Both the position numbers and the translations under genes were made by a program. A DNA stretch of 64,000 bases, from positions 2,371-66,370 of the forward strand of contig JAKEFK010000048.1 in the NCBI GenBank assembly GCA_022616075.1, read 5' to 3'. The notes beneath the pieces were generated by a model that was not told the origin of the DNA, made no database searches, and worked only from the letters and a program-made list of their open reading frames with translations. This stretch comes from a bacterium. Its GTDB lineage: Bacteria > Acidobacteriota > HRBIN11 > JAKEFK01. Numbering within the stretch: position 1 is the stretch's first letter; each line of letters opens with the position of its first letter. Below, piece by piece: positions 20,453 through 46,754 of the stretch.

Positions 20453-23400
20453 ATGAGAGCCAGGTTCCTTTTAATCGTCTTTGCACACCTGTGCTTCTCT
20501 CATTACTCCTTCGCTCTGGATCCTTCCAAATTCATCACGCAGTATGGTCATCGTACCTGGCAGATCGATGACGGTTTGCCGCAAAACACCGTTCGGGCGA
20601 TTGTACAAACACGCGACGGCTATCTCTGGTTAGGAACGCAAGAAGGATTGGTTCGTTTCGATGGAATTCATTTTACAGTATTCGATCGAAAGAATACGAA
20701 GGAGATCCGCCACAATGCGGTCAGGGCTTTGTGCGAATCCAAAGATGGAAGCCTCTGGATCGGCACTGCCGGCGGTGGAGTTCTCCGGTATCAGAATGGA
20801 AAGTTTCAAAGTTACCTGACGCGAGATGGTTTGCTCAATGACATTGTGTATTCACTCTTTGAAGACCGGGAAGGAAACGTTTGGATCGGAACTGCGCGTG
20901 GACTGAACCTCTGGAGGAACAGCAAGCTCGATACCGATGTGATCACAAAGAGTCTTTCTCAGGATCCAATCGGATCGATTTATCAGGACCGGCAGGGCCA
21001 TCGCTGGTTCGGAACCTGGAAGGGGGAACTAAAGTGCTGGAAAAGCGGCAACATGCACATTTACAGAGTCAGTCATCCTGATATCGCTGTTCGCACTATT
21101 GTTGAAGATAGGCAAGGAAACTTATGGGTGGGAACCGATGGCGATGGAATTCGGTGTTTCAAGAATGGCGAAATGTACAGCTACCATCGAAATGATGGAC
21201 TTCCCGATGAAACCGTTTTGGCAATTCATCAGGATCGGCATGATAACGTGTGGATTGCAACGAACAGTGGACTCGTCCGTTTTCGTGATGGTCGCTTTGA
21301 AGTCCATTCTGTGAGCGGAGGACTTTCCGATAAGATGGCGCTCAGTCTTTACGAAGATTTCGAAGGCAGTCTCTGGGTCGGCACCTATGGCGGGGGCTTG
21401 AATCAGCTCCGCGATACGAAGCTTACACCGTATACTTTGCGCGAAGGCCTATCCCACCCGAACGTAATGACGATTTTTGAGGATAATGCAAAAAATCTCT
21501 GGTTCACCGCCAGGGGGGGCGGCTTTCTCCAGTGGAAGGAAGGGAAATTTCATTACCATGCTTTGAATCGTTTTTCTCACCAAGATGTTTATTCCATTTG
21601 CCGGGACAAGCGAGGGAATCTGTGGTTGGGATTGGATGGATCGGGTCTGGTTCTTTATAGAGACGGAGATATGACAATTTATACAACGCGCGACGGATTG
21701 TCCAGCGATCATGTTTATGCAATCGTCGAAGGTCAGGAAAACAGCTTGTGGGTCGGAACATGGAGCGCCGGTGTCAACCATTTTAAAGATGGCCGGTTCA
21801 TCAGCTATACAGAAAAAGAGGGCCTCGCCAATAATTTTGTAAGAACTCTACATGAAAAAGATGGGCGTCTCTGGGTCGGTACGATGGGAGGACTGAGCCT
21901 CTTCAAAGACGGAAAGTTCACCACTTTTACAACGAAAAACGGACTCTCCAGTGATCAGATTCGTGCGATCCACGAAGATGATCAGGGAAACATTTGGATT
22001 GGAACCGCAGGGGGCGGGTTGAATCGATTCCAAAACGGCCGTTTTAGAGCATATACAACTGATCATGATTTTTTTAACGATGTCGTTTTTCAAATACTGG
22101 AAGATGACCAACAGAACCTATGGATGAGCTGCAATAAAGGAATTTTTTGCGTGCGTAAAAAGGATCTGGATGACTTTGATGCCGGCAAAATTCGATCGAT
22201 TCCTTCCATTTCCTTTACCAAAAAAGATGGAATGCCGAGTAGCGAATGCAACGGAGCCGGACATCCATCCGGATGGAAAACCAAAGATGGCAGATTATGG
22301 TTTCCGACAATTGCAGGAGTGGTAGTTATTGATCCAGGCAAGATTCCAGTAAACAGGATCTCCCCTAATGTATTAGTAGATAGTGTGCGGGTGGATCATC
22401 GGGAGCTTGATCTGCTTTCCGGTATCAAAATTCCTCCCGGAAGTTCGCGATTCGAATTCCGTTATACCACTCTGAGTTTTCTGGATCCCGAACAAAACAA
22501 ATTCAAGTACCAGCTGGAAGGTCATGATACCGGATGGATCGATGCCGGGCAAAGCCGTTTTGCCGCATACACGAACATACCTCCCGGAAGTTATCGTTTC
22601 CGCGTGATTGCCTCCAACAATGATGCTGTTTGGAATGAAACAGGAGCCGTTTTTGCTTTTACACTTCAGCCGCATTTCTATCAAACCAGATGGTTCCTCG
22701 CCCTATGCATCCTGGGTCTAACTTCTATTGTCTTCGGATTGCATCGTTTTCGTACGAATCAATTGAAGGCCAGACAGGCTCAACTTGCCGGGATCGTTCG
22801 GGAGAAAACGAAAGAATTGCTGGAGGCACAAAAACGATTGCAGGAAACGAACCTGAATCTCGAAGAGCGTGTGCAACACGGGATTGAGGCGCTAAGGGAA
22901 GCGGAAAGAATGGCAGCGTACGGCCAAATGATGGCTGGCGTTGCGCACGAAATTCGTCATCCGATTTTTTCGCTTCAAGCGACAGCTTATGTGCTTGGAA
23001 ATCGTCTGAAAGGGAACGAGGATCTGCAACCTCAGCTGAAGATCCTGGACCGGGAAACGAGAAGAATGTCACGATTGATGGATGATCTTTTGGAATTCGC
23101 CCGGCCCCATTCCCTTCTTTTATCGCAAGTCGATCCAGGTTCATTATTGCAAGAGGCCGTGGAGACTTTTCGCGAACAGGAAACCCCAAAAGTGTTTTTG
23201 GAGTGGGAGGCTGACCTTCCGAAAGTTACCCTGGATCGAGACCGATTGATTCAGGTTTTGATTAACTTAATCGATAACGCTACGAAACACGCGAAAAGAG
23301 TCAGCAGGATTGTCGTATCGGCTGGTAGCGCCCCGGGGGAAGTGCCCGGGATCCATTTGACGGTAGAAAACGACGGCTCCCGCATTCCCGGTGAGAATCT

Positions 23401-23608
23401 TTCTCGTATCTTTGAACCTTTCTTTACAACCGGTAAAGGAAGCGGACTGGGACTTGCGATTGTTCGACGTGTTATAACAGAACATGAAGGAACCATCGAT
23501 GTAGAATCGGGTCCAGCAGGAACATTATTCAGAATTTTTCTACCGGCACGGGGCCCGAAATCTAACGGTGTAGACAATGCAGAGGAAACGCATATTGATC
23601 ATCGATGA
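20453..23608 (+). CDS. two-component sensor histidine kinase with periplasmic beta-propeller (Reg_prop repeats) and Y_Y_Y domain
   Basis: Signal peptide. More than 12 repeats of the form ..D..G.LW.GT..GL..; Y_Y_Y-like segment; TM (WFLALCILGLTSIVFGL); HisKA (AHEIRHP); HATPase (GSGLGLAIVRRV). Confidence 0.85.
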   Translation: MRARFLLIVFAHLCFSHYSFALDPSKFITQYGHRTWQIDDGLPQNTVRAIVQTRDGYLWLGTQEGLVRFDGIHFTVFDRKNTKEIRHNAVRALCESKDGSLWIGTAGGGVLRYQNGKFQSYLTRDGLLNDIVYSLFEDREGNVWIGTARGLNLWRNSKLDTDVITKSLSQDPIGSIYQDRQGHRWFGTWKGELKCWKSGNMHIYRVSHPDIAVRTIVEDRQGNLWVGTDGDGIRCFKNGEMYSYHRNDGLPDETVLAIHQDRHDNVWIATNSGLVRFRDGRFEVHSVSGGLSDKMALSLYEDFEGSLWVGTYGGGLNQLRDTKLTPYTLREGLSHPNVMTIFEDNAKNLWFTARGGGFLQWKEGKFHYHALNRFSHQDVYSICRDKRGNLWLGLDGSGLVLYRDGDMTIYTTRDGLSSDHVYAIVEGQENSLWVGTWSAGVNHFKDGRFISYTEKEGLANNFVRTLHEKDGRLWVGTMGGLSLFKDGKFTTFTTKNGLSSDQIRAIHEDDQGNIWIGTAGGGLNRFQNGRFRAYTTDHDFFNDVVFQILEDDQQNLWMSCNKGIFCVRKKDLDDFDAGKIRSIPSISFTKKDGMPSSECNGAGHPSGWKTKDGRLWFPTIAGVVVIDPGKIPVNRISPNVLVDSVRVDHRELDLLSGIKIPPGSSRFEFRYTTLSFLDPEQNKFKYQLEGHDTGWIDAGQSRFAAYTNIPPGSYRFRVIASNNDAVWNETGAVFAFTLQPHFYQTRWFLALCILGLTSIVFGLHRFRTNQLKARQAQLAGIVREKTKELLEAQKRLQETNLNLEERVQHGIEALREAERMAAYGQMMAGVAHEIRHPIFSLQATAYVLGNRLKGNEDLQPQLKILDRETRRMSRLMDDLLEFARPHSLLLSQVDPGSLLQEAVETFREQETPKVFLEWEADLPKVTLDRDRLIQVLINLIDNATKHAKRVSRIVVSAGSAPGEVPGIHLTVENDGSRIPGENLSRIFEPFFTTGKGSGLGLAIVRRVITEHEGTIDVESGPAGTLFRIFLPARGPKSNGVDNAEETHIDHR

Positions 23609-24920
23609 TGATACGTCTTTGAACGAGGCGCTCGAGACATTGTTGTCAGATGCAGGCTACTCAGTTTTTTGCGCTGAGTCCGGAGAATCAGGAATCGAGA
23701 TTGTCCGCAAGGAACCGATCGATCTGGTTCTCCTAGACCTGCGATTGGAGGACATCAGCGGCCTGGATTTGCTGACGCAAATTAAATCGGTCCGAGCAGA
23801 AACTTCTGTGATCATGATCACCGGTGTTGGAACCATTGAAGATGCTGTTGAGGCAATGCGGCGCGGGGCAGATAACTTTATTGTGAAACCGGTCGATCCT
23901 CCAAGACTACTGGTTCTCGTTGAAAAGGGATTCGAGTCAGGTAGCCTTCGCCGTAAGGCTGCCCAGCTGGAAAGATTAAGCAATGCCGCACGTGTTTTGT
24001 TCCTGGGAAAAGCCAGGGCGATCCAGGATGCAATAAAGCTGATAGAAGTTGTTGCGCCAAGAGACACGACGGTCCTACTTCGCGGAGAGACGGGAACCGG
24101 AAAGGGACTGATCGCGCGTCGAATCCATGAAACTTCGCCGCGGAGCAAACATCCTTTTGTAGAGCTGAACTGCGCCGGATTGCAACGTGATTTAACGGAA
24201 TCAGAACTCTTTGGACATGAAAGAGGGTCGTTCACCGGAGCTCATGAAAGGAAAATCGGTCTCTTCGAAGCAGCAAACGGCGGAACTCTGTTTTTGGATG
24301 AAATTGGAGAAATGGATTATTCCATACAGCCTAAACTCTTAAATGTTTTGGAACAAAAGAGGTTTCGCCGAATTGGAGGAGTCGCAGAAATTGAAGTGGA
24401 TGTCCGCTTGATTGCGGCAACCCATCGCGATCTAACCAAGGAAATTACTGCCGGCAAGTTTCGCGAAGATCTCTTTTATCGCCTGAATGTTTTTACAATT
24501 CCAGTGCCGCCGCTTCGACAGAGAAAGGAAGACATTCTTTCGCTGGCAGAAAAATTTCTGCAAGAATTCGGCGGTGTGCAGGATGGAATTTCACACGAAG
24601 CTGCGGAATTACTTTCCTCATACGACTGGCCGGGGAATGTTCGCGAGCTTAGAAATGTTATGGAACGCGCCGCCATTCTTTGTCCGAGCCGATCCCAGGT
24701 CTTAATCTCCCATCTTCCCCAATTTACCGGTCCATCGGACGCCCATACGAGATCCCGCTCCGAGCCCCTGACTGTCAACGATGCCGAACTCAAGCTATTC
24801 GAATTGGCGCTTCGAACGCATAACTACAATTTGAAAGCCACCGCCCGTGACCTTGGTGTCTCCCGCGGCACTCTCTACAGAAAAATAAAGAAACACAAGA
24901 TCGCGCTTCCAAAAACGTGA
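23577..24920 (+). CDS. sigma-54-dependent response regulator (NtrC family)
   Basis: Receiver (ILIIDDD, DLVLLDLRL); AAA+ sigma-54 interaction domain (GETGTGKGLIARRIH, GAFTGA-like ESELFGHERGSFTGA); C-terminal Fis-type HTH. Confidence 0.9.
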   Translation: MQRKRILIIDDDTSLNEALETLLSDAGYSVFCAESGESGIEIVRKEPIDLVLLDLRLEDISGLDLLTQIKSVRAETSVIMITGVGTIEDAVEAMRRGADNFIVKPVDPPRLLVLVEKGFESGSLRRKAAQLERLSNAARVLFLGKARAIQDAIKLIEVVAPRDTTVLLRGETGTGKGLIARRIHETSPRSKHPFVELNCAGLQRDLTESELFGHERGSFTGAHERKIGLFEAANGGTLFLDEIGEMDYSIQPKLLNVLEQKRFRRIGGVAEIEVDVRLIAATHRDLTKEITAGKFREDLFYRLNVFTIPVPPLRQRKEDILSLAEKFLQEFGGVQDGISHEAAELLSSYDWPGNVRELRNVMERAAILCPSRSQVLISHLPQFTGPSDAHTRSRSEPLTVNDAELKLFELALRTHNYNLKATARDLGVSRGTLYRKIKKHKIALPKT

Positions 24921-25028
24921 AACTCTTGCTAGTGGACCGCATTTCTCATGATTCGGAATGGAACAAGGTGTTCCGTTAAAGAACACGTTTTCCCTGGGAT
25001 GACCCTGAACAGCCTCAGAGAAATACAG

Positions 25029-25044
25029 TGGTACAGCCCTTGCT
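25029..25044 (+). promoter_or_regulatory. sigma-54 promoter candidate TGGTACagcccTTGCT
   Basis: Matches TGGCAC-N5-TTGCW with one mismatch. Lies 25 nt upstream of the ATG at 25070, immediately downstream of the NtrC-family gene. Confidence 0.55.
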
Positions 25045-25069
25045 CGTTACAAAACAGCTTCGACAGAAA

Positions 25070-25447
25070 ATGGATAAGAAGTGTGTGCTCATTGTCGATG
25101 ATGATGAAGCGATTTTGGAAAGTCTTGCGGGACTCTTTCAGACCGATGATGTAATAGTTGAAGGAGCAAGTACTCTGGAAGAGGCAACAAAATTGCTGAG
25201 TGCTCATGCCTTTGATTTGGTGATTTTGGATCTACGTCTCTCATCGGGTGCCTCGCTGGAAGGACTTGATTTGTTATCGCTGATTAAAACGAAGGCTCCG
25301 AAAACGCATGTAGTTCTGATGACCGCGTACGGCGCACAGGAGATCGAACGCGAAGCAATAAGGAGGGGAGCGTCGAGTTATTTTGAGAAATCCATTCCCA
25401 TCAGCGAATTTAGGAACCGCCTCAAGGCTCTCGGTATTTCTGTCTAG
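25070..25447 (+). CDS. single-domain response regulator
   Basis: CVLIVDDDEA, DLVILDLRL, VVLMTAY, YFEKS. The track ORF starts at GTG 25028 but that extension would cover the sigma-54 promoter. Confidence 0.75.
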   Translation: MDKKCVLIVDDDEAILESLAGLFQTDDVIVEGASTLEEATKLLSAHAFDLVILDLRLSSGASLEGLDLLSLIKTKAPKTHVVLMTAYGAQEIEREAIRRGASSYFEKSIPISEFRNRLKALGISV

Positions 25448-26555: not shown

Positions 26556-28019
26556 ATGCTAACACAGAACAAACGCATCAGTCCTATCCTTGCTCCAGCC
26601 GTCGCGATCATGAACCGGCTGAAGTACCCTCAAAAGTTTGCGCTCATCAGTTTGTGTTTTGCAATTCCGCTGGCGACGGTCATGTTTTTTTTGATTTCCG
26701 AAATGAATGACCGCATTGAATTTTCTGAAAAGGAAATCATCGGTGATGCATACCTCCGCCCTTTACGGAAGCTCCTTGAACATGTCCCTTCAGCGCGAAG
26801 CCTGGCTCATTCTTACGCGAAAGGGCAAATCACGCTGCGTCCGGAATTGATTGAGCTGCAATCGATCATCGATCAGGATTTTCAGGAACTCTTATCTGCC
26901 GAAAAGCAATACGGAAAGATTCTAAATACAAGTTCCAGACTGAATGTTTTGAGCGAGAACTGGAAATTCCTGAAGAATAAGACTCTCAGTCTCGAGGCAT
27001 CGGACACCGACACGCTCTATGGCAAAGTGATCGGTGATATACGAGCGTTGGTCTCTCATGCGGGGGATACTTCCAATCTCATTCTGGATCCCGACCTTGA
27101 TAGTTACTACCTCATGGATTCAGTCCTGCTGAAACTGCCTGAAGGTGTGGATCTGGTTTCACGAACCAGTTTTTTTGCGCAATCCATTTTGGAACGCGGC
27201 TCGATGACGGCGGAAGAGAAGGCTGAGCTGATCACGTTAACGGGCTTAGTGCGTTCGAATTCAGAAGCCACACGGGCAGGTTTACAAGTAGGGTTTCGCA
27301 ACAACCCGGCGCAAAACTTGAAACCAGCCCTGGAAGAGCCGGTCCAGAATGCAGTTGCTCAAACCGAAGAGCTATTGAAAGCAATTGATGCCGAAATCCT
27401 TGACGCTCCGCAGTTGACCACGACGCAAGAGAGCCTTGAGGCACTCACTCGAAAAACGCTGGAGAAGGATTTCAGTTTGTGGGATCGCACGGTTGCAGAA
27501 CTTGATGGACTTTTGCGCACGCGAATCGATGGATTTGAGCGCAAAAAGCGATTGGTGGAAGTGATCTCCGTTCTTATGCTGGCACTCGTAGGGTATCTGC
27601 TTGTCGGTTTTTACAGAGCCGTTATGAATACTGTCTCCGGTCTGCAGGAGGCCTCCGATGCAATGATCCAGGGGAATCTTACTGGCTCCGTTTCGCTCGA
27701 AACCCGTGATGAATTGGGTCCTGTGGTGCAGTCGTTCAACAATATTGCGCGCGGATTGGTGGAAGCCAAAGAAAAATATAGGGGTATTTTTGAAAATGCA
27801 GTGGAAGGGATCTTCCAGAGCACATCCGATGGGAAATTTATCAGCGTGAATCCCGCGATGGCGCAAATCCTTGGATACAAAAACGAAGACGAAATGATCA
27901 ACAATATCTCGGCAATTTCCAATCAGCTTTACGTCGATCCAAGCAGGCGTATGGAATTCATCCGCACAATGCAGGAAGAGGGGGCCGTCACAAAATTCGA
28001 ATCCCAGGCGTACCGCAAA
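26556..28019 (+). CDS. hybrid sensor histidine kinase, N-terminal fragment (TM - periplasmic domain - TM - HAMP - start of PAS)
   Basis: Two TM segments. HAMP (LVEAKEKY coiled coil). PAS beginning [31 protein letters not shown]. The frame breaks at the A4 tract 28017-28020. Confidence 0.75.
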
Positions 28020-28020
28020 A

Positions 28021-30249
28021 GACGGCACTATGATCTGGATTTCCGAAAAGGTGCATGCCGTTTACGATGCGCAGCACAATCTACTCTATTACGAAGGGAG
28101 CATTGAGGACATCACAGAGCGGAAAGTCGCTGAGGAGGCTCTCGAACAGAAAACTGCATTATTGAAGGTCTTGCAGGAAGTAGCAGTTGCGGCAAATCAG
28201 GCTACGAATGAATTAGAAGTTCTGCAGTTCGGAATCGACCGGGTCTGTGAATTTACCAGATGGCCGGTGGGTCATGTATATATGGTGTCCAGAGGATCGG
28301 AAGGCACTCTGGCCCCGACAACGATCTGGCACCTGCCCAAGGATGGACGTTTCGATACCTTCCGAAGAGTAACCGAATCGACGCATCTAGAAAAAGGAAA
28401 AGGCCTTCCGGGCCGGGTGGCTTTGAGCGGCAAACCTGCCTGGATTATGGATGTAACAAAAGACTCCAACTTTCCGCGGGCAAAGTTCGCTGAAGACATT
28501 GGCGTTCATGGCGCCTTTGGTTTTCCGGTATTGATCGGATCTCAAGCCGTGGCAGTTATGGAATTCTTTACAGAAAAACCAGCCGAGCCGGATGAAGCTT
28601 TGTTGCAGGCAATGGCGCATATCGGTACGCAGCTTGGACGGGTCTTCGAACGCAAGCGTTCCGAAGAAGAGTTGAGGCAAGCGAAGGACCAGGCCGAAGA
28701 AGCGAATCGCTCGAAAAGCAAGTTTCTCGCGACGATGAGTCATGAATTACGGACTCCGCTGAATGCCATTATCGGATACAGCGAAATGCTTCAGGAGGAA
28801 GCCGACGATCTCGGAGTTAAAATATTTGATTCGGACCTGAAAAGAATTCACTCCGCCGGAAAACACCTGTTGACTTTGATCAATGACATCCTTGACCTTT
28901 CCAAAATTGAAGCTGGAAAGATGGAGTTGTTTCTCGAAACATTTTCACTTGCTGGTTTGATTCAGGATGTGGTGAACACAGTGCATCCGCTTGCGGAAAA
29001 AAATGGAAATAGAATCAAAGTTGAAAGTGAAAAAGATCCCGGGAGCATGCATGCTGACGTTACGCGCGTGCGACAAATTCTGTTTAACTTGATGAGCAAT
29101 GCATGCAAGTTTACAAAATCGGGAACCATCACAGTGCGGGTGAATCGAGAAATAAGAAAGAGCGGCGAGTGGTTCCGTTTCGATATTTCCGATACGGGCA
29201 TCGGAATGACTCCAGATCAGCTCGCCCGGTTGTTTGAGGCTTTTACTCAGGCTGACGCTTCCACAACCAGACAGTACGGGGGAACCGGCCTGGGTTTGGT
29301 CATTAGCCGTAAATTCTGCCATATGATGGGCGGAGACATCACTGTTCAAAGCGAACATGGCCGGGGAACAACTTTTACCGTTGAGTTACCTGTTGATGTC
29401 TCAAGTCATGGTATTCAACGAGTCCAGGTATTTGAAGAAAAAATCGCCGCGGAACCGTTGACTGCAGTTGGCAAGGAGGATTTCCGTTCTACGATATTAG
29501 TAATTGATGACGATCCGGACGCAAGAGATTTGATGTCGCGAGTCCTTTTCCGGGAGGGATTTCGTCCAGTGCTTGCTTCTTCGGGAGAACAGGGATTGTT
29601 TCTTGCCCGGGAATTGCGCCCGAAGGTGGTTATCCTGGACGTTTTAATGCCGGTGATGGACGGTTCGACGGTACTCACGGAAATGAAAGCGGATCCGGAA
29701 CTTGCAGATATTCCGGTCATCATGGTAACGATGGTCGATAACAAGGAGTTGGGCTATGCTCTCGGAGTAAGTGACTACTTGAGCAAGCCCGTGGACCGGG
29801 AACGGCTTGCTTGTGTGTTGCGGAGATTCAGCTGCCCGAATCCACCTTGTCCGGTGCTCGTTGTTGAAGACGATGAAGAAACCCGCGACATTTTCAAACG
29901 CGCATTGGAGAAAGAAGGCTGGAGTGTCGCTGTTGCGGAAAACGGCCGCGTCGGACTTGCCCGGGTATCCGAACAGATTCCGGAATTGATCCTTCTGGAT
30001 CTCATGATGCCGGAAATGGACGGCTTTGAGTTTGTGACAGAGTTGCGAAAAAACGAAGCCTGGCGCCAGATCCCGTTGATTGTTGTTACGGCCAAAGATT
30101 TGACGCAAGATGACCGCAACCGGCTAAATGGATACGTTCAGTCCATCTTGCAGAAGGGGGACTACACCAAAGATGGGCTGATGCAAGAACTAAGAAGCTT
30201 GCTTGCCGCCTGTGTTCGCGAAAGCGCTGGAAAAGAACGCACTACGTAA
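28021..30249 (+). CDS. hybrid sensor histidine kinase, C-terminal fragment (end of PAS - GAF - HisKA - HATPase_c - REC - REC)
   Basis: The +1 frame continues [17 protein letters not shown] (PAS core), then GAF, H-box [18 protein letters not shown]-box [13 protein letters not shown], and two receiver domains ([18 protein letters not shown] and [18 protein letters not shown]). Confidence 0.8.
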
Positions 30250-30277
30250 CGACTACTATCTGGTTTGAGGTAATTTT

Positions 30278-30616
30278 TTGGACGAAGAATTATCATCAGA
30301 AGAGCTGAATGTTATTCTTATTGAAAATCAGCCTGAAATCATTTCAAAGGTTCATTCACTGCTCACGGAAATCAAAGAATGCCGGCTGAAAGTTCATTCT
30401 TCACATCACGAACTGGGAAGGCAAGTAGAAGCAGAACTTCCAGACCTCGTTTTACTTGCTCATGCCGAAAATGCCCCTCAAATAGTGTCGGAGATTCGTG
30501 AACGATCTCCTGATACGTACGTGGTCATCCTCCTGCCTGCGATTCAGGAAGACCTGGTTAATGAATACATTAATCGCAGAGCTCACGGACTTTTGTTCAA
30601 GAATCAGAATTTTTAA
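30278..30616 (+). CDS. degenerate (pseudo-)receiver domain protein
   Basis: REC-like fold signature, but the acidic pair is EN (VILIEN) and the phospho-acceptor position reads DLVLLAHAEN, where Ala replaces Asp. Confidence 0.5.
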   Translation: MDEELSSEELNVILIENQPEIISKVHSLLTEIKECRLKVHSSHHELGRQVEAELPDLVLLAHAENAPQIVSEIRERSPDTYVVILLPAIQEDLVNEYINRRAHGLLFKNQNF

Positions 30617-30723
30617 GGCGATTTCATTTCGACAATGAAGAAAGCTTTTGCCCGAATTGTGGAACGCAAGTCTTCCTTGCTGAATTCTTTAAGCAAAGTT
30701 CTTTTTTCGCAAGTAATCGCGAA

Positions 30724-32046
30724 ATGGAACGGCTTTTGATGAATGTCAAGACACTCCAGCCTGGCCAAACGATCATGCATTACAAGATTGTTGAGTCTCT
30801 CGGTGAAGCTGGAATGGGTGAGGTGTATCGCGCGGAGGATCAAAAGCTGCGACGCCAGGTTGCTATTAAAGTTTTGTCTGTGCCTGTAATGCGCGATCAA
30901 ACTGCCCGAACCAGATTGATGCGTGAAGCAATCGCAGCGTCCGCTTTAAACCATCCGAATATCATCACAATTTATGCAATTGAAGAAGTCAATGATGTCT
31001 CGTTTATCGTCATGGAATTCGTTGAAGGGAAAAGCCTCTACCGGATCCTGAAACGAGGGCCGTTGCAGTTTGAGCAAATCATTGACGTTGGAGCAAAAGT
31101 TGCTGACGCTCTTTCGGCCGCTCACTCGATCGGATTGATTCACCGGGACATCAAACCGGGAAACATCATGATTACTGCCGGGGGAAATGTGAAGCTGCTG
31201 GATTTTGGCCTCGCCAAATGTATGCCGAATGTCGGACAGGATTTTTCGACAGATCCGCTTTTCGCCAGCACGCTCACAACGATGGGCTCGCCAGTAGGAA
31301 CGATCAATTACATGTCGCCTGAACAAACACGGGGGGAATCACTGGATACGCGAACTGATATTTTTTCTTTGGGAAGCGTGCTTTACGAAGCGGCAACTGC
31401 CAAATCCCCCTTCCGGGGCGCAAGCATTCTTGAATTATTCCATGAAATTGCTACTGCTGAGACAAAAGCACCCAGCAGTATCGTCTCCACTATTCCTCAA
31501 TCATTTGATGCGCTCATTTCACGCGCAATGGCTAAAAAGCCGGAAGACCGCATTGCGACTGCTGCTGAATTCTCCGAAACATTGAAGAAGCTGCTCCATT
31601 CTGAGCTGGTTCATTCGCGAGAACCATCGCACGAAATTCCGACAATCAAGCAATCCGCATCAGCAACCGGAGAAACAATCTTTCTTGTAGAAGACAATGA
31701 AGACAACCGGGACATGCTAACACGCAGATTGAAACGTAAAGGCTACGAGGTACTTATCGCTGTCAACGGAAGAGATGCTCTGGATCGCATTCCCGTTGAA
31801 CGACCTGACCTGATTCTAATGGACATCAGTTTGCCGCTGGTGGATGGCATTGAAGTGAGTCGCAGGTTGAAGAATTCCGATGCTACAAAGGACATCCCCA
31901 TCATCGCGCTTACGGCTCATGCAATGGCGGGCGACCGTGAAAAAGCGCTGGCTGCCGGATGCGACGACTACGATACAAAACCTGTCGATTTTGAAAGACT
32001 GCTGAACAAGGTCTTGCGCTCACTGGAAAAGAAAAAAGCGAAATAG
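30724..32046 (+). CDS. Ser/Thr protein kinase fused to a C-terminal receiver domain
   Basis: Hanks kinase motifs GEAGMGEVY, AIK, HRDIKPGN, DFGLAK, SPE. C-terminal REC has an intact TIFLVEDNED, DLILMDISLP, ALTAH and DYDTKP. Confidence 0.85.
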   Translation: MERLLMNVKTLQPGQTIMHYKIVESLGEAGMGEVYRAEDQKLRRQVAIKVLSVPVMRDQTARTRLMREAIAASALNHPNIITIYAIEEVNDVSFIVMEFVEGKSLYRILKRGPLQFEQIIDVGAKVADALSAAHSIGLIHRDIKPGNIMITAGGNVKLLDFGLAKCMPNVGQDFSTDPLFASTLTTMGSPVGTINYMSPEQTRGESLDTRTDIFSLGSVLYEAATAKSPFRGASILELFHEIATAETKAPSSIVSTIPQSFDALISRAMAKKPEDRIATAAEFSETLKKLLHSELVHSREPSHEIPTIKQSASATGETIFLVEDNEDNRDMLTRRLKRKGYEVLIAVNGRDALDRIPVERPDLILMDISLPLVDGIEVSRRLKNSDATKDIPIIALTAHAMAGDREKALAAGCDDYDTKPVDFERLLNKVLRSLEKKKAK

Positions 32047-32053
32047 CCGGCGT

Positions 32054-32458
32054 TCATTCACCTATCCTTGGAAGATTGATGTCGAGTTGAAGCGTCCATT
32101 TCCATTTACCGTTGACACCTTCGTCGTTGAACCAAACAGGGCCGGTCAAGAGGCTAATGTCCCTGGTAAAGAAAACGTAGAGGCCGAATCCGCCGCCTCC
32201 AAACGCGTTATTTCCCGATGCATAATCGCCCGCGAAAACCAATCTGTTAAACTCATTTCCCGCTGAGTCTTTTACCGGCATAAAGCCCCGGTCAAAAGCA
32301 ATCTCAAACCCTTTATTTTCTTTCTCTCCATCACTGCTGAGCAGAACATCACCATTGCCAATGTACGGGCCGGCCGAGATCCGGCCAACATTTGGAAACA
32401 CTTTTCCTACCACCAGATGAACAATATTTTGATTGGTCACACCGCTCTCAGTTCCCAC
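32054..32458 (-). CDS. outer-membrane beta-barrel protein, C-terminal part (same frame as 32486-32866, separated by an in-frame TAG)
   Basis: Alternating amphipathic beta-strand pattern, Gly/aromatic rich, ends ..WTLQLDINLPRIGE. Confidence 0.55.
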   Translation of the reverse strand: MGTESGVTNQNIVHLVVGKVFPNVGRISAGPYIGNGDVLLSSDGEKENKGFEIAFDRGFMPVKDSAGNEFNRLVFAGDYASGNNAFGGGGFGLYVFFTRDISLLTGPVWFNDEGVNGKWKWTLQLDINLPRIGE

Positions 32459-32485
32459 ATTGAAAATCCCCAGTTGGATGGCTGG

Positions 32486-32866
32486 CTACCCTTCAAACAG
32501 CGCATCTGCAGGTGTACCAATCCTGGCGTTAAACAAGAGTGGATGATCGCTTGGTTCCAAGAAATCGAAACCAACTTCCATTTGGAGTTTTTCAAATGGA
32601 AGAATCCCCACTGTCAGACCATAATCCGTTGGAAAATCTCCGCCTCCATCCGAAGCATCGCGAAAAACAGTAAAGTAGCTGTCGTAAGTAATATGAAATA
32701 CTTTGTACGACTGAATATCCAAGGTCATCGGAGTCCAGTAAGTGGTCGACGGCGTCGCATAACTTATGGATCCGAAAGAGACGAAGGCAACAAAAGCCAC
32801 CAGAAAAACTGTCCATCTAATCTTCATATTGGGACATATTTTAGCCCCCATCATCTTCGGCCACAA
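32486..32866 (-). CDS. outer-membrane beta-barrel protein, N-terminal part with signal peptide
   Basis: Signal peptide MKIRWTVFLVAFVAFVSFGSISYA. TAG at 32486-32488 on the minus strand. The downstream ORF is in the same frame. Confidence 0.55.
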   Translation of the reverse strand: MWPKMMGAKICPNMKIRWTVFLVAFVAFVSFGSISYATPSTTYWTPMTLDIQSYKVFHITYDSYFTVFRDASDGGGDFPTDYGLTVGILPFEKLQMEVGFDFLEPSDHPLLFNARIGTPADALFEG

Positions 32867-32872
32867 GGGTAT

Positions 32873-34096
32873 TCAATTGCCATATTCTCCAACCAGGCGG
32901 AGGAGTAAGAAAAAGCCAGGATAGAAGTTCTCTTCATCGCAATCCATTGTAAAGAGAGGCTGCGCGTCGACGGCGTTGAACAAATAGAACTTCCCAGAAT
33001 CGAAGGAATACGAGAGCGGTTTTGAAAAGGGGAACGTCATGCTGAAATTTCCGCCGAGCAAACTGGTCGACAGATAACGAACCTCATCTTTTGAAATGCG
33101 AGCAAACCGTCCCCAGGGAACATCCTGTTGAGTTGCGACTTTCAGGTAGAGGCGGTCTGCGATTTGCTTGGAAATGTCCAGTTTGGCTTGTTCCAATTCC
33201 TTATCATTGCCGTAGCGTTGTGTTTTGATTTGCATCAACTTCAAATCAGGTAAAGATTTGAGCTTCAACTGGGTCCGCGTGAAAGCGTAAATTCCATTTA
33301 CGAATTGAAGGCCGACTGCGTATTGAAGCGTTTCACAATTCCTGAAAAAAAGGACTCTGTGTCCCGGCCGCTGAATGATTCCGTTCTCGTAAAAATCCCA
33401 CGTGCGTCTCTGGAGCAGGATTGACAGAAATAACTGAAGCGCCGAATCGTCCTTTCGTCTGAATAAGAGCCGGCCCAAAGAACTGGACGATTGCGGAGGT
33501 GGATTCTTTTTAACGTAGCGATCCAGTATTTCCAAAAGAATACGTGATTGTGCGGTTTCCATTGGAATTCGAACAAAGGGATAGCTCTCTTGCAATTTCC
33601 AAACGGTTACATGATTTTCGCTCATTGCGGCATCCCAAATTTCTTTGCAATTCAGTTTCTTTCCGTTTGATTGCAAAGCTTCCGCCGTCAAAATCCAGCC
33701 ATTTCCCTGCAGAGATCCTCCCGATTCGATCTCATTTTGTGCGCGATCGGCCAGTTGTCCAATCAGTTTGTTAGCAAAAAACGGGAAATCGTCAGGAGGA
33801 TCGATCTTACTGATGTGTTTTAGAGAAATTTTTCCGGAGGAAGTGGCCAGAATGATCTCGTATTTTGTTCCGGTGCAGATCCCATTCGTATATGAATCCG
33901 CTTCCTTCCATTTCAAAATCCGCGCATCGGAAAAGAAAATGGATGAGTCATTACTCCCGATTCGGATTCGAAAGCCATTCTGATGAATGAACAATACAGG
34001 TTTCCAAAAAAAATACCGGGAAGAGCTCAGAATGAGTGGTGGCTTTTCCTCAGAACCTAGATCAGGATTGGTGTGTTTCAAACTCACGCGCCACAC
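32873..34096 (-). CDS. hypothetical 407-aa protein, orphan
   Basis: Long ORF translationally coupled to neighbours on both sides. No recognisable motif. The N-terminal region is possibly a PH-like beta sandwich. The track start is GTG. Confidence 0.5.
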   Translation of the reverse strand: MWRVSLKHTNPDLGSEEKPPLILSSSRYFFWKPVLFIHQNGFRIRIGSNDSSIFFSDARILKWKEADSYTNGICTGTKYEIILATSSGKISLKHISKIDPPDDFPFFANKLIGQLADRAQNEIESGGSLQGNGWILTAEALQSNGKKLNCKEIWDAAMSENHVTVWKLQESYPFVRIPMETAQSRILLEILDRYVKKNPPPQSSSSLGRLLFRRKDDSALQLFLSILLQRRTWDFYENGIIQRPGHRVLFFRNCETLQYAVGLQFVNGIYAFTRTQLKLKSLPDLKLMQIKTQRYGNDKELEQAKLDISKQIADRLYLKVATQQDVPWGRFARISKDEVRYLSTSLLGGNFSMTFPFSKPLSYSFDSGKFYLFNAVDAQPLFTMDCDEENFYPGFFLLLRLVGEYGN

Positions 34097-34544
34097 GGTG
34101 GCCCAAAAGATGATTTGCGATCAGGTAGCGCACTTCCAGATACGTTGCGAATCCGCTGATCATCACAGCCAGAAATCCAAGACTGAAATGAAACCATACA
34201 GGAAAAACTCCTGTGTGCACTCCCCCGCCCAGAATTGTTTGTATCATTACGGCAAGCATAGCCATTGTTGCAACTTTAAAAATGCTCTTCCGGTACGTTT
34301 TGGTTTGCGCCACATATTTTTGGTCCAGATGCTTTTTTTCGACCGCTTCACGGATCATGCGTCCCACAGCAACCACATACATCATTGTGAGACTGTGCGC
34401 AAAAACGTTCAGCGCGGTCGCGCAAAGAGCCATAACGATGTGAGAGCGGATCGAAGGTCCTGAATCCACAAGGATTCCCTGAGCAAACACCCAGACTAGA
34501 AATACGATCGAAGCGAGGTTGAAGGTGATAAGAATCCCGGTCAT
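34062..34544 (-). CDS. small integral membrane protein (4 TM)
   Basis: Four hydrophobic helices. ATGA overlap with the upstream hydrolase gene. Confidence 0.6.
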   Translation of the reverse strand: MTGILITFNLASIVFLVWVFAQGILVDSGPSIRSHIVMALCATALNVFAHSLTMMYVVAVGRMIREAVEKKHLDQKYVAQTKTYRKSIFKVATMAMLAVMIQTILGGGVHTGVFPVWFHFSLGFLAVMISGFATYLEVRYLIANHLLGHRVAREFETHQS

Positions 34545-42361: not shown

Positions 42362-43333
42362 ATGAAGATTGCTGAAAATTTACTGGACTTGATCGGCAAC
42401 ACGCCGCTCGTTTATTTAAACAAAGTTGTTCCAGCTTCCGGCGCCCGGATCGCGGCAAAACTGGAATTCTTTAACCCGTGCGGTTCTGTCAAAGATCGCA
42501 TAGGACTTCACATGGTTCGGGATGCCGTCCAAAGAGGCGCGCTGAAGCCAGGCGGAACCATCATAGAACCGACTTCAGGTAACACCGGTCTCGGCCTTGC
42601 TATGGTTGCAAATATCCTGGGTTACAAGATGATCGCAGTCATGCCGGACAAAGTTCCTGTGGAGAAGATTCGTTTACTCGAAGCATACGGAGTGGAATGC
42701 GTCATTTGTCCCACCGATGTGGATCCCACAGATCCCAGATCCTATTACGAGACGTCCAATCGATTAAACCGGGAAATCCCAAATTCCTTCTTACCGCAGC
42801 AATATTACAACCCGAAAAATCCGGACGCTCATTATCAAACGACAGGCCCCGAAATCTGGCGCGATACGGATGGAAAACTGGATGCATTCGTCGCCGGTTG
42901 TGGAACCGGTGGAACCATTACAGGAACCGCCAGGTTCTTGAAAGAAAAAAATCCCGGCGTGCGAGTTGTGGGCATCGATACGGTTGGCTCCGTAATTAAA
43001 GGCTACTTCGAAACGGGAAAAATTGAAGGCTATCATCCTTACTTGATTGATGGAATCGGCGAAGATTTTATCCCAGGCGCTTACAATTTCGAATACATTG
43101 ATGAAATCATTCAAGTTCCGGATAAAGAAGCGTATGAAATCACCATGCGTCTGGCGAAAGAGGAAAGCATTTTTGTCGGCTCTTCAGGTGGAGCAGCCGT
43201 TGCGGGAGCAATACATGTTGCTGAAAGGATGAAACCGGAACAGCTTGTTGTGGTGATCCTACCGGATACCGGAACCAGGTATCTTTCCAAACTCAACCAG
43301 GAATGGTTGCGCTCCAAACACCTCGTTGATTAG
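42362..43333 (+). CDS. cysteine synthase / O-acetylserine sulfhydrylase family PLP enzyme
   Basis: LEFFNPCGSVKDRIG PLP-lysine motif, TSGNTG, and GTGGTITG glycine loop. Confidence 0.85.
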   Translation: MKIAENLLDLIGNTPLVYLNKVVPASGARIAAKLEFFNPCGSVKDRIGLHMVRDAVQRGALKPGGTIIEPTSGNTGLGLAMVANILGYKMIAVMPDKVPVEKIRLLEAYGVECVICPTDVDPTDPRSYYETSNRLNREIPNSFLPQQYYNPKNPDAHYQTTGPEIWRDTDGKLDAFVAGCGTGGTITGTARFLKEKNPGVRVVGIDTVGSVIKGYFETGKIEGYHPYLIDGIGEDFIPGAYNFEYIDEIIQVPDKEAYEITMRLAKEESIFVGSSGGAAVAGAIHVAERMKPEQLVVVILPDTGTRYLSKLNQEWLRSKHLVD

Positions 43334-44144
43334 AATTTTTGCCCGTGTTGTTTCGCTAATTGCGCTGTTACTCTGCGTAGCAACCGCTTCTGCCGAACCG
43401 AAGAGGATTGTTTCCATCGCTCCCAGCTTCACTGAGATTCTTTACGCTCTGGGCGCCGGCCCGCAGATCGTCGGCACAACCCTTTATTGCGACTATCCCG
43501 CCGAAGCAACGAAAACCGAAAAAATTGGAGACGTGCTGAATCCCAATGTGGAAAAAATTATTTCTTTGAAACCGGACATAGTATTCGCCGGAAATTGGAA
43601 ATGGAATGTGCCTGAAAAGTTACGAGCCGCAGGCATTCTGGTTGTAGAGGTTCCGGATGCCCAGACTCTTGATGATGTTTTTCAGCGATTCAATCTGATA
43701 GCCGGCAAGATCAACCGGCTCCCTGCTGCCACACAATTGATCGCAACCATGAAACAACAGATGGAAGAAATTCGGAAGCGAGCCGCTGCCAAACCACAGC
43801 GCACTGTATACATGGAGATTGATGCCGGCAATTGGACAGTTGGAGGCCAATCTTACCTCACAGAAATTTTGAAAGTCCTGGGTCTTCGAAACGTCTTTGG
43901 TGAACGGCAGGAACCTTATCTAACCGTTACGATGGAATCGGTCGTTGCCAGAAATCCCGATCTGCTGATGTCTCTCAGCCGCACGCAAGAAGAGTATCAG
44001 AGCCTGGCGGCTTGGCGGGCTTTGCGCGCTGTTCGCGAAGGTAAGATCATTGACAAGAATGCGATTGATTGGAATGCTATCACTCATCAGGGATCCCGTT
44101 TGATCGAAGGGATCCAGCAACTGGATTCACTGCTGAACAAGTAA
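43326..44144 (+). CDS. ABC transporter periplasmic substrate-binding protein, BtuF/FecB class
   Basis: Signal peptide. KRIVSIAPSFTEILYALGAGPQIVG and LKPDIVFA motifs. TTG start overlapping the upstream stop. Confidence 0.8.
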   Translation: MIRIFARVVSLIALLLCVATASAEPKRIVSIAPSFTEILYALGAGPQIVGTTLYCDYPAEATKTEKIGDVLNPNVEKIISLKPDIVFAGNWKWNVPEKLRAAGILVVEVPDAQTLDDVFQRFNLIAGKINRLPAATQLIATMKQQMEEIRKRAAAKPQRTVYMEIDAGNWTVGGQSYLTEILKVLGLRNVFGERQEPYLTVTMESVVARNPDLLMSLSRTQEEYQSLAAWRALRAVREGKIIDKNAIDWNAITHQGSRLIEGIQQLDSLLNK

Positions 44145-44180
44145 ACTATTTTTAACAGAAGAACGCAAAGATCAAGAAAA

Positions 44181-44230
44181 GTAGCGCGGGCGTCCCGCCT
44201 GCGAACGCTACGCAGACGAGACGTCCGCGT
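44181..44230. repeat. family-1 palindromic repeat, copy 6 (inverted, 3' end degenerate)
   Basis: gtagcgcgggcgtcccgcctgcgaacgctacgcagacgagacgtccgcg. Confidence 0.7.
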
Positions 44231-44266
44231 TCCTTCGCGTCCTTCGCGATCTTCTGTTCAAAAAAA

Positions 44267-45019
44267 ATGCGAATCATCAGTTTGGTGCCATCGATAACCG
44301 AAACACTGTTCGAACTGGGTCTGGGTGATCAGATCGTAGCCGTCACCCGGTGGTGCACCAGACCAGCAGAAAAGGTTATCCATAAACCAAAAGTTGGTGG
44401 AACCAAGAATCCAAAACTGCAATCCATACTTGAATTCAAGCCTGATATTGTCATTTTGGATTGCGACGAAAACCGCAAAGAAGATGCCAAGGCGTTGGAG
44501 AAAAACAAGATCCGCACCTTTACAGTCTTTCCAAAAACGATTGACGATTCTATTCACATGATCCGGCAGCTGGGTGAGTTGTTTTCCGTGCAGCCCGCAG
44601 CTGCTGCAATGACTGAGGAGATTCAAAAGCTGCGAGAAGCATACAAGCCCGATCGTATCTATGAAAGCCTGATTCTGATCTGGCGCAAACCATACATGAC
44701 AATCAACGCTGATACTTATGTTCACTCTGCCTGCGAGCTTTTTGGATTTCGCAATGTTTTTGCTTCCCATCAAAAACGATATCCGCCGTTAACGCCGGAA
44801 GAAATCGAGCAGATCGATCCGGAAATGATTCTTTTTCCTGACGAACCTTATCCATTTCGACGCAAACATCTGGATCTCTTCCAACAAGAGTTTCCTGGTA
44901 TAAGAGCCGTGAGCAACGGTCAGATGTTCCTCTTTGACGGCAGCCACGTCGCCTGGCATGGCTTCGGGACATTGCGGGCCTTGCGCGAATTTCCGCTACA
45001 ATTTCTTAACAAAAAATGA
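44267..45019 (+). CDS. second leaderless periplasmic-binding-protein-fold (cobalamin-binding-like) protein
   Basis: MRIISLVPSITETLFELGLGDQIVAVT and LEFKPDIVIL motifs. No signal peptide. Paralogous to 37846-38754. Confidence 0.7.
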   Translation: MRIISLVPSITETLFELGLGDQIVAVTRWCTRPAEKVIHKPKVGGTKNPKLQSILEFKPDIVILDCDENRKEDAKALEKNKIRTFTVFPKTIDDSIHMIRQLGELFSVQPAAAAMTEEIQKLREAYKPDRIYESLILIWRKPYMTINADTYVHSACELFGFRNVFASHQKRYPPLTPEEIEQIDPEMILFPDEPYPFRRKHLDLFQQEFPGIRAVSNGQMFLFDGSHVAWHGFGTLRALREFPLQFLNKK

Positions 45020-45966
45020 GCGGACATTTCGTTCGATGGATGTTTACGTTAGCTCTGTTGCTTGTGATCACATTTGCTGCTTCTCTATGGATTGGTGAAG
45101 TCCGCGAATGGAATCCCGCTGTGGTTTTCAACATCCGTTTGCCGCGCGCGCTGCTTGGACTCGTCGTTGGAATCGCGCTGGCAACTGCCGGTGCAGTTTA
45201 TCAGGGATTGTTGCGAAATCCTCTTGCTGATCCGTACATTCTGGGAACTTCAAGCGCTGGAACTTTCGGAGCTCTGGTTGCAACGATTCTGAATTTTCAT
45301 TTCCAATATACGCTTTATATTTTTTCAATTGGCGCCTGCTTCCTGAGCATGTTGCTTGTGTACCGCATCGCCACAACACACGGACGAACTCCCATCCAAA
45401 CGCTCATACTGGCAGGCGTTGTCTCCAGCACTTTCTTCAGCGCGCTCGTTCTGCTCTTATTCACACTATTCCGGCGCGAATCCTTTTCCGTTCTATTCTT
45501 CATGCTGGGTTCTCTTTCAATCGCGGGCACAGGTTGGTCGATTGTGGTTTCGGGTTCGCTGGTCCTGGTAGGTCTGCTGATCGCGCTTTTTTATGCGCGA
45601 GACCTCGATGCGATGAGCGGTGGAGAAGAAGATGCAATTCATCTCGGCATCAAAGTTGAGACGACCAAGCAAATCCTTTTCTTCTCCTCTTCCCTTCTGG
45701 TAGGCGCAAGTGTTGCCCTGGCAGGCTCCATCGGATTTGTCGGTTTGATCATTCCTCATATTCTTCGTTTGTTGGTCGGACCATCGCACCGCAAATTGAT
45801 TCTCGCAAGCGCCATCGGTGGCGCATTCTTCCTGGTGTTGATGGACATTCTGTCGCGAACGATTTTTTCTCCCGTGGAAATTCCGGTCGGCGTTTTTACT
45901 TCCCTTTGCGGCGCGCCCTTCTTTATCTTTCTCTTAAAAAAGAAACAAAAGGAACTGGTGTATTAA
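45016..45966 (+). CDS. FecCD-family ABC transporter permease (BtuC-like)
   Basis: About 9 TM helices. Conserved LLRNPLADPYILGTSSGA region. Confidence 0.9.
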   Translation: MSGHFVRWMFTLALLLVITFAASLWIGEVREWNPAVVFNIRLPRALLGLVVGIALATAGAVYQGLLRNPLADPYILGTSSAGTFGALVATILNFHFQYTLYIFSIGACFLSMLLVYRIATTHGRTPIQTLILAGVVSSTFFSALVLLLFTLFRRESFSVLFFMLGSLSIAGTGWSIVVSGSLVLVGLLIALFYARDLDAMSGGEEDAIHLGIKVETTKQILFFSSSLLVGASVALAGSIGFVGLIIPHILRLLVGPSHRKLILASAIGGAFFLVLMDILSRTIFSPVEIPVGVFTSLCGAPFFIFLLKKKQKELVY

Positions 45967-46754
45967 TGATTTCTGCTCAGGACGTCGGTTTCGGTTATGA
46001 CGGCTCGTTTCATCTTCAGAATATTTCATTTGAAATGTCGAAAGGCGCCTTCTGGGGTGTCATTGGTCCGAATGGCTCCGGAAAATCCACGCTGTTAAAA
46101 ATCCTGAGCAAAGTGATCCAAGCGCAGCAAGGTACGATCAAAATTGACGGACAGCCCTTGAAAACATTCGCATTAACGGAACTCGCCAGAAGGATGGCTG
46201 TAGTTGGAAGCGAGGCTCAGTTTTCCTATCCATACCACGTTCAAGATGTTGTCCTTATGGGCCGCATACCTTTTGTGGGTAGACTCGGCATTCATTCCCA
46301 ACGGGATCATCAGATCGTTGATTCTGTGTTGCGCAAAACGGAAACGTGGGCCTACCGCAACCGCTACATTCACGAGCTTTCCAGCGGTGAACGCCAACGC
46401 GTACTACTTGCGCGAGCGCTGGCTCAGGAACCACGCGTGCTTTTGCTGGATGAACCCACCGCGCACCTCGATCTCCATTATGAAATCGAAATCTTCCAGA
46501 TCCTAAAAGCATTGAACGCTGAGGAAAGTCTCACCATCCTGACCGTTTCTCATAACCTGAACTTGATGGCCGAGTTCTGCGAAAAACTGATCCTCATGCA
46601 AGGAGGCCTCTGCCACCAGATCGGCACACCTGCTGAAATCCTGACTGCTTCATTGCTTCGTGATGTTTTTCGAATCGATTGCAAGATCGAAAAAAATCCC
46701 TTCTCTCAGGCACCGGCAATTCTTTTGAACACACGCATTGACAACCGCAACTGA
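45966..46754 (+). CDS. ABC transporter ATP-binding protein (BtuD/FecE-like)
   Basis: GPNGSGKSTLLK Walker A, LSSGERQRV signature, LLLDEPTAHLD Walker B. ATG overlaps the permease stop. Confidence 0.9.
   Translation: MISAQDVGFGYDGSFHLQNISFEMSKGAFWGVIGPNGSGKSTLLKILSKVIQAQQGTIKIDGQPLKTFALTELARRMAVVGSEAQFSYPYHVQDVVLMGRIPFVGRLGIHSQRDHQIVDSVLRKTETWAYRNRYIHELSSGERQRVLLARALAQEPRVLLLDEPTAHLDLHYEIEIFQILKALNAEESLTILTVSHNLNLMAEFCEKLILMQGGLCHQIGTPAEILTASLLRDVFRIDCKIEKNPFSQAPAILLNTRIDNRN

Follow-up and report, generated by a model that had tools for sequence, protein, structure and literature searches.

The case for cross-talk between two-component systems and Hanks-type Ser/Thr kinases usually rests on inference from promiscuously phosphorylated regulators. 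In the HptB-HsbR-HsbA system of Pseudomonas aeruginosa, a His-Asp phosphorelay controls a receiver protein that acts by phosphorylating or dephosphorylating a partner on Ser/Thr; HsbR carries a PP2C phosphatase, its kinase is of the RsbW (GHKL) type instead of the Hanks type, and the relay passes through an Hpt protein. Architectures that combine Pkinase with Response_reg are reportedly included in the domain censuses of Galperin's response-regulator surveys. Anabaena HstK holds a Ser/Thr kinase, GAF and a histidine kinase in one protein (PMC2176072), and fungal Rim15 consists of a protein kinase followed by a C-terminal receiver (REC), which has a true Asp or is a pseudo-receiver depending on the lineage and whose role is largely unstudied (PMC8510515). 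Among pseudo-receivers and atypical response regulators, phosphorylation-independent dimerization is a common theme, and the review that describes it makes no mention of Hanks or Pkinase outputs (PMC12632262). Here we describe a signaling cassette at positions 26556–32046 of a 64,000-nucleotide (nt) stretch of an Acidobacteriota genome (GCA_022616075.1, contig JAKEFK010000048.1; hereafter the window), which encodes a hybrid histidine kinase and a Hanks kinase fused to receivers. This region is very probably a recently pseudogenized two-gene operon, of which related bacteria carry an intact pair that would work by the mechanism proposed below.

Gene structure of the cassette

The open reading frame (ORF) map of the window revealed four ORFs, not three, on the plus strand of the cassette. 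They are listed with their lengths in amino acids (aa) and their frames (start coordinate modulo 3).

26556–28106, + strand, 516 aa, frame 0
28030–30249, + strand, 739 aa, frame 1
30278–30616, + strand, 112 aa, TTG start, frame 2
30724–32046, + strand, 440 aa, frame 1

The initial annotation had described three consecutive genes here, for a hybrid kinase, a free receiver-like protein and a Ser/Thr kinase with a receiver. This layout was not borne out, because tblastn placed the 112-aa and 440-aa ORFs as pieces of one gene of ~589 aa. The 1230-aa hybrid kinase stood with regard to its domains, which Pfam identified after frame correction, and failed as a single ORF, since a frameshift in an A4 run (28017–28020) had been read through silently. 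On these frames and alignments, the cassette is an ancestral operon of two genes, both disrupted: one for the hybrid histidine kinase and one for a pseudo-receiver/Ser/Thr kinase/receiver protein. A scan for promoters and terminators gave signal at chance level.

Hybrid histidine kinase gene

Dropping one A of AAAA at 28017–28020 joined the two frames (26556–28019 and 28021–30249) into a protein of exactly 1230 aa, and the PAS domain that lies across the junction was complete after joining (PAS_9 over residues 417–521). Pfam analysis of the joined kinase identified HAMP, PAS, GAF, HisKA, HATPase_c and two Response_reg stretches. The HAMP match was weak (19.2 bits versus a cut-off of 25), HisKA scored 75.8 bits and contained the H-box SHELRTPLN, HATPase_c scored 112.9 bits over profile positions 2–110 of 111, and the two Response_reg stretches scored 146.6 bits with the acceptor motifs VVILDVLMP and LILLDLMMP. 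Comparison with the intact 1239-aa kinase of a related locus (L002) by tblastn revealed the same break at 76% identity: residues 1–488 aligned with 26556–28019, and residues 488–1220 with 28018–30225 in the next frame. The ~285-aa periplasmic region between the two transmembrane helices (TM1 and TM2) had no Pfam match. No Hpt family member was found in the kinase, the flanking ORFs, the Pfam calls within ~10 kb or L002, the rest of the genome not having been searched.

26556–28019, + strand, N-terminal part of the hybrid kinase, ancestral residues 1–488 (ORF list; L002 alignment, 76% identity)
26637–26696, + strand, TM1
27552–27614, + strand, TM2
27615–27758, + strand, weak HAMP (Pfam)
From 27771, with the rest up to 28119 and the frameshift inside, + strand, PAS (Pfam)
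28021–30249, + strand, C-terminal part of the hybrid kinase, ancestral residues 489–1230 (Pfam, tblastn)
28204–28647, + strand, GAF (Pfam)
28711–28917, + strand, HisKA, His codon at 28741–43 (Pfam, motif)
29056–29397, + strand, HATPase_c (Pfam)
29494–29811, + strand, REC1, Asp codon at 29638–40 (Pfam, motif)
From 29854, + strand, REC2, Asp codon at 29998–30000 (Pfam, motif)

Pseudo-receiver/Ser/Thr kinase/receiver gene

Correction of both lesions in the second gene yielded a 589-aa protein that aligned end to end with its family. In tblastn, residues 1–139 of the full-length relative P0002 aligned with 30278–30697 across a TAA codon, and its residues 130–587 with 30667–32034 in the other frame.

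30278–30613, + strand, pseudo-receiver, N-terminal domain of the ancestral 589-aa protein, TTG start with GAGG 8 nt upstream
30617–30697, + strand, what is left of the helical linker, in the pseudo-receiver frame (tblastn matches of P0002 and P0003 continue to 30697 and 30706)
30724–32046, + strand, largest surviving ORF, 440 aa, with the linker end, Hanks kinase and C-terminal receiver (Pfam)
30781–31560, + strand, Hanks kinase domain (Pkinase, 171.6 bits)
30808–30810, + strand, change in the glycine-rich loop (canonical GxGxxG), GEAGMG, second Gly to Ala (G178A) in the window's species; Gly in six of six intact orthologues
31219–31221, + strand, strain-specific non-synonymous change, TGT (Cys) in the window, TGG in sister strains
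31678–32013, + strand, C-terminal receiver, Asp codon at 31822–24 (Response_reg, 94.7 bits)

The Pkinase and Response_reg calls on the 440-aa ORF confirmed the earlier description of a Ser/Thr kinase with an intact C-terminal receiver (DLILMDISLP). The kinase motifs VAIK, HRD, DFG and SPE were all found, and the receiver exhibited a complete set of acceptor residues, consisting of the E-D pair, D (LILMDISLP), T (ALTAHA) and K (DTKP). It resembles the receivers of hybrid kinases, and many of its top matches were cyanobacterial HisKA-REC proteins. The 440-aa ORF is 100% identical to a 435-aa NCBI protein (MCI0602192.1; P0001). At the position of the strain-specific change (AK-W-MP), Trp is present in P0002–P0005 and P0010, and Phe in P0009. 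The full-length AlphaFold2 (AF2) model (predicted local distance difference test, pLDDT, 83; predicted template modeling score, pTM, 0.53) was confident for the domains and unreliable for the arrangement between them.

The sequence features ascribed earlier to the 112-aa receiver-like protein, DLVLLAHAEN and an E-N acidic pair (LIENQ), were read correctly; its status as a gene of its own did not hold. Ala occupies the acceptor position (DLVLLAH), Leu replaces T87 and the Lys is retained; against Response_reg the ORF scored 27.9 bits, under the Pfam cut-off of 30.2.

Lesions in the window and in sister strains

Three lesions interrupt the two genes in the window.

28017–28020, + strand, lesion 1, extra A in an A4 run, frameshift in PAS (CGC-AAAA-GAC in the window, CGC-AAA-GAA in L002)
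30614–30616, + strand, lesion 2, TAA nonsense codon (GAA to TAA); mostly Glu in orthologues, GAA in L002 (NF-E-ND/TDF)
30695–30697, + strand, lesion 3, 1-nt deletion in an A-run (30694) of the window strain, shifting the frame from linker to kinase

Five sister assemblies (L092–L096), ~99.9–99.95% identical to the window, all share lesions 1 and 2. The locus was recovered from two NCBI metagenome-assembled genomes (MAGs; GCA_022615055.1 and GCA_975752425.1) and from the runs SRR16971104 and SRR16971107, and the Logan assembly of SRR16971108, the window's own run, aligned with the window gap-free over 21,308 bp, the one mismatch being at 34867. At lesion 3, the window has GCAAAGT (30694–30700), where L092, L094, L095 and L096 have GCAAAAGT. 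The strain-specific changes were distributed as follows.

Window and L093, 1-nt deletion at 30694, frame shifted between linker and kinase
L092, L094 and L095, 1-nt deletion plus substitution at 27543/27547, kinase N-terminal piece split into 335 + 186 aa
L096, 1-nt insertion at 31708, receiver severed from kinase, giving 368 + 110 aa (P0271)

All three strain-specific indels (27543, 30694 and 31708) fall within the 5.5-kb cassette, and none was found outside it in 14.8 kb of flanks or in 12.4 kb around an unlinked paralogue, when the same strains were compared (~27 kb). Between the window and L094, 7 of 10 differences over 20.3 kb were located in the cassette, which makes up 27% of that length (binomial P = 0.006). 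Because the window carries three disabling lesions and the sister strains carry further ones, the window copy is unlikely to be a working relay, and the confinement of strain-specific indels and the enrichment of polymorphisms in the cassette point to ongoing decay. We conclude that the two fixed lesions (28017–20 and 30614–16) probably inactivated the operon in the ancestor of the population and that independent mutations are still accumulating.

The gene map exhibited no split gene elsewhere in the window, and ten genes checked with Pfam had full-length domain coverage; a general flood of broken genes in the MAG was rejected on this ground. Reassignment of TAA was likewise rejected, as TAA terminates 16 of the 39 genes of the window, more than any other genuine stop codon.

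Several observations weigh against complete inactivation. Catalytic cores persist as ORFs in most assemblies, as a 732–739-aa GAF-HisKA-HATPase-REC-REC piece, and the kinase domain persists in all of them; every catalytic motif is retained in the window protein; for two of the three strain-specific indels, the segment that was hit had already been cut off from the cores, so that residual function of fragments is possible; and changes unique to the window protein at otherwise invariant columns (15, including G178A) are only in mild excess over those of P0002 (10). In the C-terminal stretch of the kinase, the L092 record annotates just a 172-aa REC ORF, and the DNA there is one substitution from that of L094.

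Relatives and conservation of the gene pair

The closest homologues of the 440-aa ORF were P0002–P0005 (66–70% identity) and P0009 and P0010 (51–54%), all of 587–615 aa. These six align end to end in the order pseudo-REC, helical linker of ~50 residues, Hanks kinase and REC; the pseudo-receiver is thus the N-terminal domain of the kinase protein in six of six full-length relatives of the receiver-bearing clade. Their loci were arranged as follows.

L002, kinase of 1239 aa, gap of 22 nt, fused protein of 587 aa
P0003 contig, kinase of 1234 aa, 4-nt overlap with a fused protein of 603 aa
L087, C-terminal 335 aa of a 70%-identical kinase, 4-nt overlap with a fused protein of 587 aa
P0004 and P0005 contigs, overlapping upstream gene on the same strand, cut by the contig end and not counted among loci with a recognized kinase
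P0010 (L004–L006), convergent with a different hybrid kinase, dCache-HAMP-PAS-HisKA-HATPase-REC
P0009, no histidine kinase nearby

In every close relative with a readable upstream region, namely L002, the P0003 contig and L087, the gene immediately before that of the fused protein, in the same orientation, encodes an orthologous kinase. Co-occurrence in related genomes, which the initial annotation had proposed as a check on the linkage of the genes, was therefore found for the pair of kinase and fused protein. Since the flanking genes differ between loci, the conserved unit appears to be the two-gene pair.

An intact 608-aa paralogue with the architecture pseudo-REC, Ser/Thr kinase and REC (P0009/P0272; 51% identical) is present at another locus in the same two MAGs (L097, 10001–11827, GCA_975752425.1; also L098 and L003). 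It lies between a gene for a Ser/Thr kinase with TPR and a convergent FHA-domain gene, followed by an extracytoplasmic function (ECF) sigma/anti-sigma pair, and no histidine kinase was found at the locus. Both genes of the cassette are decaying together while the unlinked paralogue is intact, which is indirect evidence that the two genes may work as a unit.

A more distant variant of 975 aa (L089, 2984–5911; L090, 62–2989) has the order pseudo-REC, PAS, Hanks kinase, DUF4388 and TPR, without a C-terminal receiver, and no histidine kinase was found within 13 kb at these loci. The lack of a histidine kinase beside the receiver-less variant, at one or two loci, is consistent with a kinase that signals to the C-terminal receiver. 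A scan for loci on generic kinase motifs returned 80 Acidobacteriota-type kinase loci, which hint at an affinity to that phylum; none of them had an N-terminal pseudo-receiver.

Pseudo-receiver family

We built a profile from the first 165 residues and compared it with 1.84 billion cluster representatives, of which 387 matched at E ≤ 1e-3, 31 of them with E ≤ 1e-10. In nearly all of the top 32 matches, the domain begins within the first 21 residues, and a Hanks kinase follows in at least 20; the short entries were mostly fragments at contig ends or the window's own 112-aa ORF. The proteins fall into two size classes, of ~590–605 aa and ~920–1000 aa, the longer of which suggests that the 975-aa variant belongs to a whole class with its architecture. 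Comparison of the 31 members with CheY showed that, in nearly all, the acceptor is Ala, Ser or Thr, T87 is Leu and the second acidic residue (D13) is lost, and that Glu at the first acidic position is retained, as is the Lys. The AF2 model of the N-terminal domain exhibited a (beta-alpha)5 fold, with pLDDT ~90 over residues 10–120 and a long alpha5 that enters the linker, and Foldseek matched it to receiver structures, the best in the PDB being the atypical regulator HP1043 (2pln; TM-score 0.86, normalized to the target). An invariant Cys is present in the EIKEC motif of the pseudo-receiver in the receiver-bearing clade, and the ~950-aa class has a different conserved Cys at the CheY-106 "switch" position; a redox or ligand role is conceivable.

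Word-indexed homologue searches with the 112-aa ORF and the N-terminal profile returned only the window protein and one truncated relative, and the searches made found no free-standing pseudo-receiver gene outside the species population of the window. The only other short copy examined, P0122 (208 aa; L091, 1638–2264, GCA_046714535.1), is a truncated orthologue of P0009 with 60% identity to its residues 4–199; it ends just past the glycine-rich loop of the kinase. With a mere ~350 nt between it and the conserved FHA gene, this locus seems to have lost kinase and receiver by deletion, which would be a second independent loss in the family. The idea of the pseudo-receiver as a separate docking or decoy partner is contradicted by these results, as the domain is fused to the kinase in relatives and the free form arises from TAA in place of a Glu codon; the free-standing 112-aa receiver is best regarded as an artefact of this nonsense codon, the stump of a larger gene.

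Alternative explanations for the broken frames

Functional gene fission, in which the pieces are expressed and act as separate proteins (a soluble GAF-HisKA-HATPase-REC-REC protein from the ATG at 28030, the 112-aa pseudo-receiver and a linker-Ser/Thr kinase-REC protein of 435–470 aa), is essentially the multi-protein relay of the initial annotation. The TAA and the kinase frameshift are fixed across all five assemblies, an internal ATG at 30635, 18 nt past the TAA, opens a 470-aa ORF (P0270) in the sister strains, all catalytic motifs are intact, and two of the three later indels hit segments that would be dispensable under fission. However, neither a split kinase nor a free pseudo-receiver was found in other species, where the short matches examined were truncated fragments running into the kinase. 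The frameshift in L096 severs the receiver from the kinase, the window strain lacks the linker start and has the Trp-to-Cys and glycine-rich loop Gly-to-Ala changes, no Shine-Dalgarno-like sequence precedes 28030 or 30724, and polymorphism and indels are concentrated in the cassette. Given this balance, we consider fission unlikely.

Sequencing or assembly error, with genes that are intact in the organism and a stop and frameshifts that are homopolymer or consensus artefacts, could be suspected because two of the three window lesions lie in short A-runs. These runs are merely of 3–5 bases, however, and one lesion is a G-to-T substitution; the shared lesions recur in the Logan assembly of SRR16971108 and in the copies from the two NCBI MAGs and two further runs, the strain-specific ones are reproduced in the matching MAG and run (L094 = L095), and no other checked gene in the window is split. 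Such error is therefore very improbable. We give slightly less credence still to programmed recoding, by which +1 and -1 ribosomal frameshifting plus stop read-through would yield full-length proteins. AAA-AGA at the kinase site could in principle permit a +1 slip of tRNA-Lys, but three different events would be required, orthologues are plainly in frame at all three sites, the sites differ among near-identical strains, the -1 site has no slippery heptamer, and TAA is a normal stop codon here. Recent pseudogenization of the operon remains the preferred reading.

Proposed mechanism of the intact pair

The product of the first gene is predicted to be a 1230-aa membrane hybrid kinase with two transmembrane helices, a periplasmic domain, two receivers and no Hpt domain; that of the second is predicted to be a 589-aa cytoplasmic protein with a non-phosphorylatable pseudo-receiver at its N-terminus and a canonical receiver at its C-terminus. 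In the intact pair, the hybrid kinase would autophosphorylate on His upon periplasmic, PAS or GAF signals, and the phosphoryl group would pass directly from the HisKA His to the acceptor Asp in the Ser/Thr kinase's C-terminal receiver, with the hybrid kinase's own two receivers possibly serving as intramolecular sinks or regulators. Phosphorylation of the receiver would then switch the Hanks kinase, probably through relief of autoinhibition or dimerization. No Hpt was seen in the operon or within ~10 kb, and direct transfer from His to the receiver seems the most economical route; alternatively, transfer might depend on an Hpt encoded elsewhere, or the histidine kinase might be a target of the Ser/Thr kinase. 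The pseudo-receiver, together with the long alpha5/linker helix, may form a constitutive regulatory or dimerization module of the Hanks kinase; for this part, conserved in a wider kinase family that lacks the C-terminal receiver, such a role is more likely than one in phospho-signaling, in line with reports on other pseudo-receivers (PMC12632262). The earlier proposal that His-Asp transfer feeds into Ser/Thr phosphorylation thus gains support for the intact family, from conserved synteny, and not for the decaying window copy.

If true, a dedicated operon-encoded pair would offer a clean and testable case of His-Asp signaling that drives Ser/Thr phosphorylation, with the Ser/Thr kinase itself in the role of response regulator. 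The proteins of experimental worth are the intact orthologues, for example those of L002, and not the window copy. The locus also serves as a warning for annotation, as a small orphan pseudo-receiver gene may be the stump of a larger gene.

Neighboring genes in the window

A second signaling cluster (20453–25447), intact in every strain, lies just upstream and encodes a 1051-aa histidine kinase whose sensor is a Reg_prop/Y_Y_Y beta-propeller, a 447-aa sigma-54 (NtrC-type) regulator whose gene overlaps that of the kinase, and a 139-aa single-domain receiver. Directly downstream of the cassette, three ORFs of 134, 407 and 160 aa on the minus strand (32054–34544) are conserved in all sister assemblies; direct Pfam scans of the 134- and 407-aa ORFs gave no match, and none is on record for the 160-aa ORF. 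Another Hanks-type Ser/Thr kinase, fused to a long TPR region (1053 aa), is located at 51930–55091. At 43326–46754, two tandem genes for periplasmic binding proteins (Peripla_BP_2) precede those for a FecCD permease and an ABC ATPase; the arrangement resembles an uptake operon of the iron-chelate/cobalamin type in which the binding protein is duplicated.

Comparison with known systems

A literature search returned no description of a pseudo-REC-Ser/Thr kinase-REC protein or of its kinase operon, and no experimental study of the REC plus Hanks kinase architecture. The novelty claimed earlier for the linked system was upheld to this extent: the combination of pseudo-REC, Hanks kinase, C-terminal REC and coupled dual-receiver kinase was not found described. 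Chances are about even that the intact orthologues constitute an undescribed unit, in which His-to-Asp transfer would directly gate Ser/Thr phosphorylation without Hpt, a dual-receiver kinase is translationally coupled to a response-regulator Hanks kinase, and the pseudo-receiver marks a wider uncharacterized family of Hanks kinases (31 representatives, E ≤ 1e-10, two architecture classes).

The REC plus Hanks kinase regulators share with the protein described here a full-acceptor receiver joined to a Hanks kinase, next to which a histidine kinase is encoded, whereas here the receiver is C-terminal to the kinase and a second, non-phosphorylatable receiver occupies the N-terminus. Rim15 has the same succession of kinase domain and C-terminal receiver as the protein of the second gene, but it is a eukaryotic AGC-type (Greatwall-family) kinase, not homologous overall, and has neither an N-terminal pseudo-receiver nor an operon-linked histidine kinase. 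HP1043-type pseudo-receivers share the (beta-alpha)5 fold with the N-terminal domain, in which the Lys is retained but the Asp, the Thr and the second acid of the pair are lost; the difference lies in the output, which here is a Hanks kinase and not a DNA-binding domain. The physical coupling of Hanks-type and two-component modules and the GAF/PAS sensing recall HstK, in which Ser/Thr kinase and histidine kinase form one protein, whereas in the present cassette the Ser/Thr kinase is joined to receivers and the histidine kinase has its own, adjacent gene. The relay of HptB-HsbR-HsbA includes an Hpt protein, in contrast to the present operon, to which none is linked.

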